A DNA stretch of 64,000 bases from Paludibacteraceae bacterium. GTDB taxonomy: Bacteria > Bacteroidota > Bacteroidia > Bacteroidales > Paludibacteraceae. Location: assembly GCA_024399535.1 (NCBI GenBank), contig JAKSNU010000001.1:5628-69627 (forward strand), given 5' to 3'. Positions 1 through 3,874 of this stretch are shown here, one piece after another. The notes beneath the pieces were generated by a model. That model ran no database searches, was not told where the DNA came from, and was given only the letters and a program-made list of their open reading frames with translations. The position numbers and the translations under genes are program-made. The stretch's first letter is position 1. Each line of letters starts with the position of its first letter.

Positions 1-2269
1 GTCTTTTGCGGAACTTGGCATTCTCGTCTTCTTTGGCTCGCTGATATTTCTCAATAGCAGCACGAACATTAGCATCGTTAAATTCGCGTGCAGTCTCGAC
101 GACAATCCTTGTGTTTTCGTCTATTATACCATCGATTAGGAGATTGTTAATCTGTCGGCGAAGTTGATGAAGCACACGCATAACCATAGGATTGCGGAAA
201 ACATTGGTGGCAGGCGAGTTCAAGAGACGGAGAGACAAGAGGTTGCCATTGTGCCATAAAGTCCTTTCCTTTGCCTTAGGGTAGATGTCAATGGCAGAGG
301 GATGATACAAGACAGTGGAAAGGTCAATGTCTTTGTATTTGTCAGAAACCATATCACCGAAATGTTCTGTGATGAAGTCAGCAATAGCATCTGTCAGTTT
401 AGGAACCTTGACCATTTTGCGTTCAGAATCAGCAAAGAAACCCTGATACAAGACGGCGACACGATCAAGCATTTTTTGTTTTTCCTCGGCAGATTTATCT
501 CGCCAGACTTTCGGTGAAAACATATCCTCGCTGAACTTTCTCACGTCTTTGCGGTCGTCATCGTCTATGATATATGAAGTGTCGTTGATAGCGAATTTCT
601 TCTCGTCAGGCAACATCCTATAGTATGTGATGACATTGTTGGCAATGCGGCTGCAAGTGTTTTCAAATGCCACATTTTCTTTGAGCACATCGTATGCGTC
701 AAGCATGGTGTCTTTGTTTCTCTCCCAATTAGCAATACCGATAATATCAGCAACCTTAGCCCAAAGGACAGCATCAGAATATATGAGTCCTTCGAAGAGA
801 AGCCTATTGATGTTGTTGATGGCTTTGAGCGAAAGGTTGGCATAGCCGTCACTTATCGCAGACCAAAGTTTAACCATGACGGTGGATTTGTCGTCGTCAA
901 GATGCTCAGCGCAGAAATCCATGATGTCCTCGGCATCATCAGCCGCAAAACAAACATGCCAAAGTTCATCATAATTATATAGTTTCACCTTGTCTTTTTC
1001 CCTTGAGGAATGACCGCCGAGTGTGGCATTTTTCCAATCATCACCCAACAACTGCTTCAGTCTATTGATTACGGGACAACCAGATACGGTTGTGTTGTTT
1101 TTGTAGTTAAGATAAAGGACTTTGCCAGTGTAGCTGAAATGGTTGATGAGGAATTTTTCGATGTCAGAGAACTTGAATGTTTTTTTTGCCCTGGTGAAAA
1201 TCCCGTCGAACAGTTCCCTCTTGACCTGCAAGTCAAGAGGACGGAAATCCTCGTTTTCGTCAAGACGATATTTGATGTTGTTGATTAAAGTCCAAGCCCT
1301 GAACTCCTCAAACTCAGGACGGCTGATAGGGCAACGACTTTTGGATGGTTCAAGAGTACATTTGCCGACAGTTCCTTTCTGTGAACGCAGAGGACGTTTG
1401 AAGAAGATTGAACCTTCGTTGCGCTTGCGGCTGAGTATCTCCAAACCAAAATCCTTGTCCACGTCTATGTCCTGACACTGGAATATAGCACGCACCTCTT
1501 CCTCATAAAGATCACGAACAGCCTGAAACTCACCATTACCCCTTACCCTTATTCCGTCACGTTCCATCATGGCGAAAGCAACACCTGCGGTTTTGCATCC
1601 GTTTTCCGTCATATAATTCTTTAGTCCAGAACTCTTTTTCTTTTCAGATTCCTTCAAAGCATCAAACATTTCGACCTCCTGAACCTCAGCATTCTTTTCA
1701 GTAGCCTCTTTCTCCATATCGTTCAAAGTCTCACCTTTGCTGCTTTTGAAGCCACGTCTCTGGGCAATATGATAGAGGGCACGCCCGAGTTTGAAGCGGT
1801 TAATCTGTTGAGAAAGGTCAAGTTTTGTTTCGGCAAGTTCAGCCCTCAGCTGATATGGAGAAGAGTAGTCTGGAATGCCGTCAAGATTGAAGTCAAGTCT
1901 TACCCACTGCTCGAATTTGTAGTTTTCGATAGGATACAGACGTTTGACAGCTTTGCTTTTGTCATAATGCCGCCACCTGTCAAGCTCATCAATGGACAAA
2001 GGACAGTAGCCATATTTAATCAAAACATCAAGAGTCCGCCATATCCTGTATCTGCGTGCTTGATTAAGCCTCCGTGAACTGCGGTGTTTGGTTCGTTCAG
2101 CAGCCAGACTTTTGATTGTACCTTTGTCCGTACGTCCTGTTCCTTCTTCAAATATCACAGAAGTAAAAAAAACAAGCTGATCTGATACTTTTCCTTCAAT
2201 GTCAGTGTCTCTTACACTTAATCCTATCGAATTGGTTCCCAAGTCGATACCTAAAACTTTACCTGCCAT
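1..2269 (-). CDS. cas9: Cas9 (type II CRISPR endonuclease), N-terminal ~756 codons; ORF continues beyond the left window edge
   Basis: Not in the ORF track because there is no in-window stop. Hand translation from the ATG at 2269..2267 (minus) gives MAGKVLGIDLGTNSIGLSV (RuvC-I motif with catalytic Asp). It also gives an Arg-rich bridge helix AAERTKHRSSRRLNQARRYRI, ALYHIAQRRGFKS, NPMVMRVLHQLRRQINNLL, and a RuvC-II-like RIVVETAREFN near codon ~735. The frame stays open to position 1. No listed minus-strand ORF shares this frame, which fits one uninterrupted open-ended ORF. Confidence 0.9.
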   Translation of the reverse strand, partial: MAGKVLGIDLGTNSIGLSVRDTDIEGKVSDQLVFFTSVIFEEGTGRTDKGTIKSLAAERTKHRSSRRLNQARRYRIWRTLDVLIKYGYCPLSIDELDRWRHYDKSKAVKRLYPIENYKFEQWVRLDFNLDGIPDYSSPYQLRAELAETKLDLSQQINRFKLGRALYHIAQRRGFKSSKGETLNDMEKEATEKNAEVQEVEMFDALKESEKKKSSGLKNYMTENGCKTAGVAFAMMERDGIRVRGNGEFQAVRDLYEEEVRAIFQCQDIDVDKDFGLEILSRKRNEGSIFFKRPLRSQKGTVGKCTLEPSKSRCPISRPEFEEFRAWTLINNIKYRLDENEDFRPLDLQVKRELFDGIFTRAKKTFKFSDIEKFLINHFSYTGKVLYLNYKNNTTVSGCPVINRLKQLLGDDWKNATLGGHSSREKDKVKLYNYDELWHVCFAADDAEDIMDFCAEHLDDDKSTVMVKLWSAISDGYANLSLKAINNINRLLFEGLIYSDAVLWAKVADIIGIANWERNKDTMLDAYDVLKENVAFENTCSRIANNVITYYRMLPDEKKFAINDTSYIIDDDDRKDVRKFSEDMFSPKVWRDKSAEEKQKMLDRVAVLYQGFFADSERKMVKVPKLTDAIADFITEHFGDMVSDKYKDIDLSTVLYHPSAIDIYPKAKERTLWHNGNLLSLRLLNSPATNVFRNPMVMRVLHQLRRQINNLLIDGIIDENTRIVVETAREFNDANVRAAIEKYQRAKEDENAKFRKR

Positions 2270-2292
2270 ATAATAATTTTTTTGTTTTTTTC

Positions 2293-2323
2293 TTTGTCAC
2301 GTCAGAAAATATTACTACCTTTG
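2293..2323 (+). promoter_or_regulatory. Bacteroidetes-type promoter for the tracrRNA candidate (-33 TTTG 2293-2296, -7 TACCTTTG 2316-2323)
   Basis: TTTG and TAnnTTTG separated by 19 nt, matching the Bacteroides sigma-A consensus spacing. No ORF lies downstream. Confidence 0.6.
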
Positions 2324-2328
2324 CACCC

Positions 2329-2421
2329 GTAAAAAGATACTAAGTGAAAGACTTTTCACAACAAGGCTATAAGCCGAAGAATCTCTAAGCTCTGCGCTCC
2401 GTGCGTGGAGCTATTTTTTTT
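2329..2421 (+). ncRNA. tracrRNA candidate (~92 nt), divergent from cas9
   Basis: Four parts in order. Putative anti-repeat at 2329-2362, GTAAAAAGATACTAAGTGAAAGACTTTTCACAAC. Nexus-like AAGGCTATAAGCC at 2363-2375 (GGCT/AGCC hairpin preceded by AA). A 10-bp terminator stem 2388-2397/2403-2412. T8 at 2414-2421. It sits 60 nt from the cas9 start codon on the opposite strand. Ends are approximate. Confidence 0.65.
2388..2421 (+). terminator. Intrinsic terminator of the tracrRNA candidate
   Basis: AGCTCTGCGC / GCGTGGAGCT stem (10 bp including 2 G:U), loop TCCGT, then A + T8. Confidence 0.7.
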
Positions 2422-2427
2422 CCGCTG

Positions 2428-2459
2428 CAAAGTTACAAACAATTATTGGTTTATACAAA
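2428..2459 (-). promoter_or_regulatory. Probable cas9 promoter (minus strand: -33 TTTG 2459-2456, -7 TAACTTTG 2435-2428)
   Basis: The reverse complement reads TTTG-(20 nt)-TAACTTTGCAGCG. The extended GTAACTTTGCAGCG is identical to the promoters at 20939 and 39546. The predicted TSS near 2421 gives a ~150-nt leader to the cas9 ATG. Confidence 0.6.
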
Positions 2460-2671
2460 TTTTCGTTCTTTAATTATGGCGAATCCGAGATAATTAAAAA
2501 TAAGTCCGATTATTTATTTTCTTCATTTCCTGACGTTCGTCAAACATTTCGATTTCTGCCCAGCATTATGTGAACCTTTGTTTCGTTCGACCATCATCCG
2601 ATAATACAAGTGCATTATCGGACGGTGAATATTCGAAAATGGGGTTCACCTAAAACGATGGTAATAGCAGA

Positions 2672-2741
2672 TTGAAAAGAGACGGAGCAGGCTCCGTCAT
2701 TACAGCCGATATGCCTTATAAAACCTAAACAAAATATTTCA
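2672..2741 (-). ncRNA. Candidate short RNA (~65-70 nt) from the orphan promoter, ending at a hairpin plus weak U-tract
   Basis: Minus-strand -7 box at 2754-2747. Hairpin GACGGAG/CTCCGTC (2681-2687/2692-2698, 4-nt loop) followed on the minus strand by TCTTTTC. No ORF longer than 16 codons. Speculative; transcription may instead read through towards cas9. Confidence 0.3.
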
Positions 2742-2746
2742 CGCTG

Positions 2747-2754
2747 CAAAGTTA
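2747..2754 (-). promoter_or_regulatory. Orphan -7 box (TAACTTTG, extended GTAACTTTGCAGCG) with no ORF downstream for ~470 nt
   Basis: Exact copy of the 14-nt extended -7 motif seen at three other promoters in this window. No clear -33 TTTG. Confidence 0.45.
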
Positions 2755-2846
2755 CACATTCACTTGCCGATATTTCCGTACAGTGATATTTTTTTTCAAA
2801 AAAAATTATTTCTACGTTTTATACTCTCATTATCAGTTTTTATTAT

Positions 2847-2854
2847 TAACTTTG
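2847..2854 (+). promoter_or_regulatory. -7 box TAACTTTG upstream of the WYL regulator gene
   Basis: TAnnTTTG motif 109 nt upstream of the ATG at 2963, and divergent from the orphan minus-strand box ~90 bp away. Confidence 0.5.
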
Positions 2855-2962
2855 CAACGTCATATTAAACTGCTGTATCGCCCCCTTTATTGATACTCAC
2901 AAAATCTTGGCAAATGGTGGCTAATAAAAGGAGTTTGATTAGTACAAAAACACAATATCGCT

Positions 2963-3874
2963 ATGAATGTAACTTTCAGGTTAGTCTGGCTCATCGACAC
3001 ACTTATGAGTCGTAAATCACTCTCGTTTGAGGAGATTTCGGACCTCTGGAGCCGAAACACATTCCTCAACAACGGTTCACGCCTGCCTCGCAGCACTTTC
3101 AGCGACTGGGTACGCGAAATACGCGACCTCTTCGGCATCAGAATAGAATACGACCGCAGCAACCTGCAAAAATACGTAATCACGAACCTCGACGAGATGC
3201 GTGACAACACTACTGCAAATTGGATTATCAACTCTATATCGGTCTGCAACACCCTCAGCCAATACAAAGATATGAAGGATCGTGTCATCATCGAAGATAT
3301 ACCATCAGGACAACCACACCTTGACACTATCATCAACGCTATGCGCGACTGCCACCCTATCCAAATCGAATACCACAACTTCAGACGCGACGACCATAAA
3401 TTGCACACTTTGCAACCGAGTTTCGTGAAGTTATTCGAACGGCGGTGGTATGTGTCCGCTTTCTCGGTTGAAAACAACGAGCAGCGTGTCTATTCGCTCG
3501 ACCGCATAAAATCAATCACCGTGCTGACCGACAGTTCGTACACCTACGACCCAAAGGTGCAATCGCACGATGCTATCTACGACCGTTGCACTGGCATATT
3601 CACCTCCGACAACAAGCCGGTGGAAATAGTTTTCCGCACATCGAAGCTTCAAGCTAAATACCTCACGAGTCTCCCTCTGCATCAGTCGCAGAAAATCGTT
3701 CGGCAGACACAAATCAAAACAACGTTTTCGATAATGGTCGCCCCTACTATCGACCTTAACCGCAAATTCCTGTCGCTCGGTGCAAATGTCGAAATAATCT
3801 CGCCTAAATGGTACCGTCAAGAGATACGCGAGGAGTGTGCTCGAATGGCAAAAATGTATAAAATATTAAGATAA
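2963..3874 (+). CDS. HTH-WYL domain transcriptional regulator
   Basis: 303 aa. The N-terminus FRLVWLIDTLMSRKSLSFEEISDLW is wHTH-like. The central ERRWYVSAFSVENNEQRVYSLDRI matches the WYL-domain signature, followed by a C-terminal extension. Confidence 0.8.
   Translation: MNVTFRLVWLIDTLMSRKSLSFEEISDLWSRNTFLNNGSRLPRSTFSDWVREIRDLFGIRIEYDRSNLQKYVITNLDEMRDNTTANWIINSISVCNTLSQYKDMKDRVIIEDIPSGQPHLDTIINAMRDCHPIQIEYHNFRRDDHKLHTLQPSFVKLFERRWYVSAFSVENNEQRVYSLDRIKSITVLTDSSYTYDPKVQSHDAIYDRCTGIFTSDNKPVEIVFRTSKLQAKYLTSLPLHQSQKIVRQTQIKTTFSIMVAPTIDLNRKFLSLGANVEIISPKWYRQEIREECARMAKMYKILR

Follow-up and report, generated by a model that had tools for sequence, protein, structure and literature searches.

A probable cas9 promoter beyond a divergent tracrRNA gene, and a predicted antisense cas9 leader, in one Cas9 clade of the Bacteroidales

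Where does transcription of cas9 begin when the gene for the trans-activating CRISPR RNA (tracrRNA) lies immediately upstream of it and is read in the opposite direction? The question is raised by a 64,000-nt stretch of DNA (G000:C1:5628–69627, the whole of which is referred to here as the window) from a Paludibacteraceae metagenome-assembled genome (MAG) of 1.63 Mb and 80 % completeness, whose closest relatives are Paludibacteraceae MAGs of faecal origin, one of them labelled horse faeces. The window carries the N-terminal 756 codons of cas9 (positions 2–2269, minus strand, ATG at 2269), identified from the list of open reading frames (ORFs) and a Pfam Cas9_a match; the complete open frame encodes 1450 aa and runs past the window start. 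The cas1 and cas2 genes and the CRISPR array lie on the same contig, just outside the window, and the array contains 11 exact copies of a 47-nt repeat, GTTGTGAATTGCTTTCGAAATGAGTATCTTTGACATTATAGAACAAC, together with variant copies, all read on the plus strand in the direction of the cas genes. A sequence-only reading had proposed that cas9 is transcribed from a promoter situated beyond the far end of the tracrRNA gene, so that the entire cas9 leader would be antisense to the tracrRNA. We have weighed this proposal against promoter motifs in the window and the genome and against the corresponding region of related loci, and consider it probable that the distal promoter does drive cas9 and that the layout is as proposed.

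The proposal depends on the identity of the tracrRNA gene, which is genuine and lies on the plus strand. The RNA of ~90 nt (2329–2421, plus strand) was defined by its anti-repeat, nexus, terminator and fold; when the region 2100–3100 was compared with Rfam, no family was matched and two chance-level hits only were returned. The anti-repeat (2332–2363) pairs with nt 1–32 of the repeat, to which the pairing of the tracrRNA is limited, and with the locus's own 47-nt repeat it forms a duplex of -27.9 kcal/mol, compared with just -16.2 for the opposite strand. It is also on the strand that matches the direction of the array, repeats and tracrRNA both being on the plus strand. The nexus hairpin GGCTATAAGCC (2365–2375) follows, and then a terminator hairpin detected by the terminator scan (2388–2412) and a run of eight T's (2414–2421). 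The predicted fold of this strand (z = -3.2) was better than that of all 200 shuffled sequences and, among 25 related loci, the terminator stem shows compensatory changes and the nexus is invariant. A motif scan places the tracrRNA promoter at 2293–2323 on the plus strand, with a -33 element TTTG at 2293–2296, a 19-nt spacer and a -7 element TACCTTTG at 2316–2323. It stands 24–54 nt from the cas9 ATG, within the predicted cas9 leader, and the corresponding transcription start site (TSS) is predicted at ~2328–2331, ~60 nt from that ATG.

The distal promoter was found by the motif scan exactly as reported from the sequence, on the minus strand, with a -33 element TTTG at 2459–2456, a 20-nt spacer and a -7 element TAACTTTG at 2435–2428, extended to TAACTTTGCAGCG at 2435–2423. 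It thus has both hallmarks of promoters of the Bacteroidetes primary sigma factor, namely a -7 element TAnnTTTG and a -33 element TTTG 19–21 nt upstream. Such complete motifs (TTTG-N19-21-TAnnTTTG) are rare: seven were found in the 64-kb window when 1.1 were expected, and none of 100 shuffled sequences reached seven. Four exact copies of TAACTTTGCAGCG and two with one mismatch were found elsewhere in the window, from which it follows that the identity reflects the strong-promoter consensus of this genome, which the extended box matches, rather than a duplication. Genome-wide, 84 % of the 221 complete motifs lie outside ORFs of at least 120 aa. The following ATG is typically 47 nt away from the box (genome-wide median; 90th percentile, 162 nt), so that the 158 nt found for cas9 are long but within range. 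Two of the seven motifs in the window are the pair that flanks the tracrRNA gene. The sequence-only reading had called these promoters back-to-back; they are in fact convergent and face each other, with predicted starts ~95 bp apart.

When the G of the -7 box is taken as position -5, as in PMC9723704, the cas9 TSS is predicted at 2423–2421, 1–3 nt outside the T-run of the tracrRNA terminator. The promoter lies just outside that terminator and points towards the cas9 ATG, as had been claimed. Between the predicted start and the ATG (2421–2269, minus strand), the terminator scan gave no terminator-like site, and neither a strict box nor a box with one mismatch accompanied by a -33 element was found in this locus (L003 of the comparison described below). 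A scan with the sigma-70 consensus gave weak matches of 9/12, for example at 2300–2273 on the minus strand. The Bacteroidetes primary sigma factor is not known to use the TTGACA/TATAAT consensus and these matches, belonging to a consensus that is not that of the host group, were for this reason disregarded. Apart from the distal promoter, the cas9 strand has no canonical promoter from the cas9 ATG out to a second box, at 2754–2742.

That second box, an exact copy of TAACTTTGCAGCG on the minus strand 319 bp further out and also directed towards cas9, has to be taken into account, as the distal motif could be a chance or vestigial match, with cas9 read from further upstream (for example from this outer box) or from a promoter of unrecognised type; a motif alone is, moreover, no proof of function. 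We judge this explanation to be very improbable. Besides the rarity of the complete motif and its preference for non-coding DNA, a terminator-like hairpin (2698–2681), followed by the tail TCTTTTCAAT, lies on the same strand ~45 nt downstream of the outer box and would stand between it and cas9. The orientation and position of the distal box are conserved in relatives, whereas the stretch from 2460 to 2760, in which the outer box lies, is not conserved in either of the two closest loci, L001 and L002. The outer box and hairpin together (2681–2757, minus strand) are a candidate for a short RNA or for an attenuated outer promoter.

Conservation was assessed in a sample of 201 genomes from the family and 401 from the order, which yielded 49 non-redundant cas9 heads. 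A divergent tracrRNA with the conserved nexus was present upstream of cas9 in 41 of them. In 37 of these loci its -7 box, on the antisense strand, was 22–92 nt from the ATG; in one further locus it was 180 nt away, and the remaining three had no strict box. A strict TAnnTTTG on the sense (cas9) strand was found 0–60 nt beyond the tracrRNA 3' end in 13/41 loci, compared with 1.8 on average and at most 7 in shuffled sequences; on the antisense strand over the same interval the count was 1/41, and on the sense strand 60–120 nt beyond the tracrRNA it was 3/41. Of the 13 loci that have a distal box, 12 are among the 17 in which the N-terminal part of Cas9 shares 50 % identity or more with that of the window, and in a Cas9 tree the distal-box loci fall in one clade of 17 members with support of 100/99, representing four GTDB families.

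In L001 and L002, whose Cas9 proteins are 92–93 % identical to that of the window, the alignment extends from cas9 through the tracrRNA gene to the -7 box (TATATTTGCAGCGGA), where homology ends; even so, a TTTG precedes the box by 19 nt in both. Across the distal-box loci the flanks cannot be aligned, the box begins variously with TAAC, TATA, TAGT, TAAA, TAAT or TACC, and its distance from the terminator ranges from 6 to 51 nt. Because the flanks are unalignable and both the box variants and the distances differ, these comparisons indicate that the motif, rather than the sequence around it, is what is conserved. In the window and in L011, L012, L013 and L032 the strict box ends 6–8 nt from the A-run of the terminator, and near-consensus distal boxes with a -33 element end 4–8 nt from the terminator in L016, L021 and L030. 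At such abutting loci the predicted start coincides with the complement of the U-tail of the tracrRNA.

A different arrangement is found in L017, L018, L022 and L031, which belong to other lineages, and in L008, a member of the clade. Here a sense box stands 24–35 nt before the ATG, back-to-back with the tracrRNA promoter, and the tracrRNA promoter of L017, L018 and L031 is 80–92 nt away from the ATG, compared with a median of ~48 nt in the distal group. Judged by their motifs, related systems thus have two alternative placements of the cas9 promoter, and the nested layout is conserved in one Cas9 clade and is not universal in the Bacteroidales. A comparison of orthologous loci had been proposed for a conserved arrangement of the two promoters: the distal promoter is indeed conserved, and is orientation-specific, in one clade, but other clades have a promoter adjacent to the ATG.

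With the distal promoter in use, the predicted cas9 5' leader would be 152–154 nt long (2270–2423, minus strand), in line with the length of about 150 nt put forward earlier, and would consist of a full-length complement of the tracrRNA and then, up to the ATG, a stretch rich in A. The tracrRNA would lie wholly beneath it, in antisense, as an exact complement. The leader would also carry, upstream of the ATG, the repeat look-alike that the sequence-only reading had pointed out: it begins with GTTGTGAAAAGTC at 2362 on the minus strand, where the genuine CRISPR repeat, outside the window, begins with GTTGTGAATTGC, and in comparison with that repeat it extends over 2332–2362 (GTTGTGAAAAGTCTTTCACTTAGTATCTTTT).

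We propose that transcription of the cas9-cas1-cas2 operon most likely starts at the distal minus-strand promoter (2459–2428), which abuts the 3' end of the divergent tracrRNA gene. RNA polymerase would start at ~2423–2421, read in antisense across the tracrRNA gene and its promoter, and reach the ATG at 2269, so that the tracrRNA gene would be nested backwards in the cas9 5' untranslated region (UTR), with the two promoters facing each other across ~95 bp. Since the T-run corresponds to about +3 to +10 of the distal promoter, a polymerase bound there would cover the tracrRNA terminator, while polymerases bound for cas9 would have to pass the tracrRNA promoter and would displace complexes at that site. 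With the terminator covered in this way and the tracrRNA promoter traversed, each transcript should damp the other. In addition, leader and tracrRNA could form a perfect duplex of ~90 bp, a potential substrate of RNase III, and interference together with cleavage of the duplex would tie the output of cas9 and tracrRNA to one another. To judge from this geometry, promoter collision, cleavage by RNase III and coupling of cas9 to tracrRNA are all plausible; given the layout, we put the chances of a biologically meaningful regulatory effect at roughly one half.

A number of observations weigh against the reading set out above. The cas9 TSS is predicted from a motif. Three or four of the 17 clade members are without a distal box (L006, L023 and L027, to which L008, with its proximal box, may be added), and in most loci outside the clade the strict scan recognised no cas9 promoter, which means that motif scanning misses real promoters. 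The locus counts include kin and are not independent, so that their significance is overstated. In some clade members an intact repeat-derived box, TATCTTTG, lies within the complement of the tracrRNA and could give those loci a shorter cas9 leader that barely overlaps the tracrRNA. The leader strand shows no special fold (z = +0.25), as would be expected of a mere by-product of compact packing. RNase III (TIGR02191) was not found in the 80 %-complete MAG, although it is present in 5/5 relatives tested, and because of this the absence is probably an assembly gap.

The intact boxes bear directly on another explanation, namely that a non-canonical promoter near or inside the tracrRNA gene accounts for most cas9 transcription, the distal promoter being a minor one or serving a separate antisense RNA. 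The candidate within the window is the degenerate, repeat-derived -7 box TATCTTTT (2344–2337, minus strand), which has GTTG 19 nt upstream, the look-alike having retained the -33/-7 geometry of the repeat. The matching box is intact, as TATCTTTG, at -56 to -84 in L009, L011, L013, L024 and L026, and in Flavobacterium it is accepted that the repeats of type II-C arrays encode promoters (PMC8092290 and PMC10309648). On the other hand, the final G of the box in the window is replaced by T, and TAnnTTTT is not in excess in the sense orientation ahead of the ORFs of this genome (207 sense and 352 antisense occurrences), unlike TAnnTTTG (341 and 201, respectively). Pairing with the repeat suffices to explain the intact internal boxes elsewhere, and the five loci that have them retain the distal box too. 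We regard transcription chiefly from such a promoter as improbable, and the G-to-T change led us to judge an internal repeat-derived promoter unlikely in this window.

If the distal promoter is accepted as that of cas9, it remains to be considered whether the overlap has consequences. The layout could be neutral, the overlap being a by-product of compact packing or of an origin of the tracrRNA from a degenerate repeat in the operon leader, and a tracrRNA in large excess and quickly bound by Cas9 and CRISPR RNA (crRNA) would make interference and duplex formation physiologically unimportant. The absence of selected structure in the leader strand agrees with this, as does the fact that related Cas9 clades function with an ATG-adjacent promoter, which implies that nesting is not required. 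Set against it is the retention of the distal box within 6–51 nt of the terminator, in unalignable flanks and in four families, which speaks for selection on the promoter, though not on the overlap itself; nor is chance a ready explanation for the close abutment at the window locus and at the seven loci named above. We consider a neutral layout to be possible, if not favoured. Doubtful too, in our view, is the strongest form of the regulatory proposal, in which face-to-face promoters would provide a clade-wide feedback independent of protein, interference and RNase III cleavage of the ~90-bp duplex setting the ratio of Cas9 to tracrRNA. If true, it would represent a second route of Cas9 self-regulation, mechanistically distinct from that of the long-form tracrRNA (tracr-L).

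The sequence-only reading had likened the arrangement to Cas9 autoregulation in Streptococcus pyogenes. There, Cas9 with the long-form tracrRNA binds an 11-bp site with a protospacer-adjacent motif (PAM) at the cas9 promoter (Workman et al., preprint 10.1101/2020.05.21.102756). The two loci are alike in that the tracrRNA gene of the S. pyogenes type II-A system is also upstream of cas9 on the opposite strand, and in that, for both, the tracrRNA locus itself is proposed to set expression of the cas operon. They differ in that the S. pyogenes cas9 promoter, as described there, lies between the tracrRNA promoters and cas9, whereas here it would lie beyond the tracrRNA 3' end, and in that any coupling here would arise through convergent transcription or through an RNA duplex and would not involve binding of Cas9 to DNA. 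A repeated 11-mer of the kind expected of a tracr-L-like guide match was looked for in 2200–2800 and none was found, and with the tracrRNA TSS ~60 nt from the ATG there is no room for a long form. For these two reasons the locus does not belong to the tracr-L systems, even if it might have a comparable function, and the likeness that had been drawn is a loose one.

Structural parallels to the layout are found outside CRISPR biology. In the excludon-type, or cis-antisense, arrangements of Listeria, one gene has a long 5' UTR that runs antisense to its divergent neighbour, and transcriptional interference between convergent promoters is exemplified by pR and pL of coliphage 186. The present locus resembles them in that a long 5' UTR would be at once mRNA and antisense RNA to the opposite neighbour, and in that its promoters stand face to face less than 100 bp apart; the predicted overlap geometry and the lack of an intervening terminator agree with a cis-antisense 5' UTR. 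It differs in that the antisense partner here is a small RNA which encodes no protein but is required as a cofactor by the product of the overlapping mRNA, and in that the overlap is predicted here from sequence. The locus would combine two known kinds of arrangement, a tracrRNA-cas9 head region and a cis-antisense 5' UTR.

Type II-C systems of the Bacteroidota are described as having long repeats (47–48 nt) and divergent tracrRNAs (Chylinski et al., 2013; PMC3737331), and type II-C arrays as having repeat-encoded promoters (PMC8092290; PMC10309648). The locus studied here conforms to these descriptions in its 47-nt repeat, its array directed towards the cas genes, its divergent upstream tracrRNA and the promoter box inside each repeat. 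In the passages of these three papers that were covered by term look-up, the cas9 promoter is not positioned with respect to the tracrRNA and none is described on its far side. The sole predicted case is that of Fp2Cas9, where TAnnTTTG stands 153 bp upstream of the start codon inside an inserted IS982 element; as this element lies between the tracrRNA gene and cas9, there is no overlap in that case. Wider full-text searches and term look-ups in the literature turned up neither a cas9 leader described as antisense to a tracrRNA nor a TSS map of a Bacteroidota type II-C locus.

To our knowledge, the balance between Cas9 and its guide scaffold in native systems is understood in detail only for tracr-L of S. 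pyogenes. If the layout described here couples cas9 to tracrRNA, it would be a simple cis-encoded form of control that is carried with the locus on horizontal transfer. There is also a practical side, as transfer of Bacteroidales type II-C systems to other hosts with only a short proximal region upstream of cas9 would leave the promoter behind. Should the layout prove neutral, a position for the probable cas operon promoter of this clade has still been obtained. The loci with an ATG-adjacent promoter (L017, L018, L022, L031 and L008) are natural comparison cases for the question of whether nesting matters.

Several minor observations concern the surroundings of the locus. A gene for a WYL-WCX protein (2963–3874, plus strand; Pfam E = 3e-13 and 2e-8) is divergent from the cas9/tracrRNA control region, an adjacency that is absent in the two closest relatives, L001 and L002. 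A direct repeat of ~65 nt is present on both sides of the CRISPR-Cas locus, at G000:C1:1141–1203 and at window positions 2790–2856, with 39/43 plus 15/15 identities, and the plus-strand promoter that leads into the array at the end away from the cas genes is a copy of the one in front of the WYL-WCX regulator gene. The two copies suggest an insertion or duplication at the promoter, or shared regulation of the array and the WYL-WCX gene. Within the array (G000:C1:1238–2200, outside the window), each 47-nt repeat has TTG at nt 2–4 and a perfect -7 box, TATCTTTG, at nt 25–32, 20 nt apart, which would constitute a full Bacteroidetes promoter with a start predicted ~7–8 nt before each spacer. Such a promoter may explain the unusual length of the repeat and agrees with the proposal that repeats encode promoters in type II-C arrays of Flavobacterium. 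The pair of spacers closest to cas2 (G000:C1:2046–2152, outside the window) are identical (GCAGGCATCCCGGACTTGTATATCCAGTGC), and at its other end the array finishes with a truncated repeat, which suggests that new spacers are acquired on the cas-proximal side and that one repeat-spacer unit has undergone a recent duplication.

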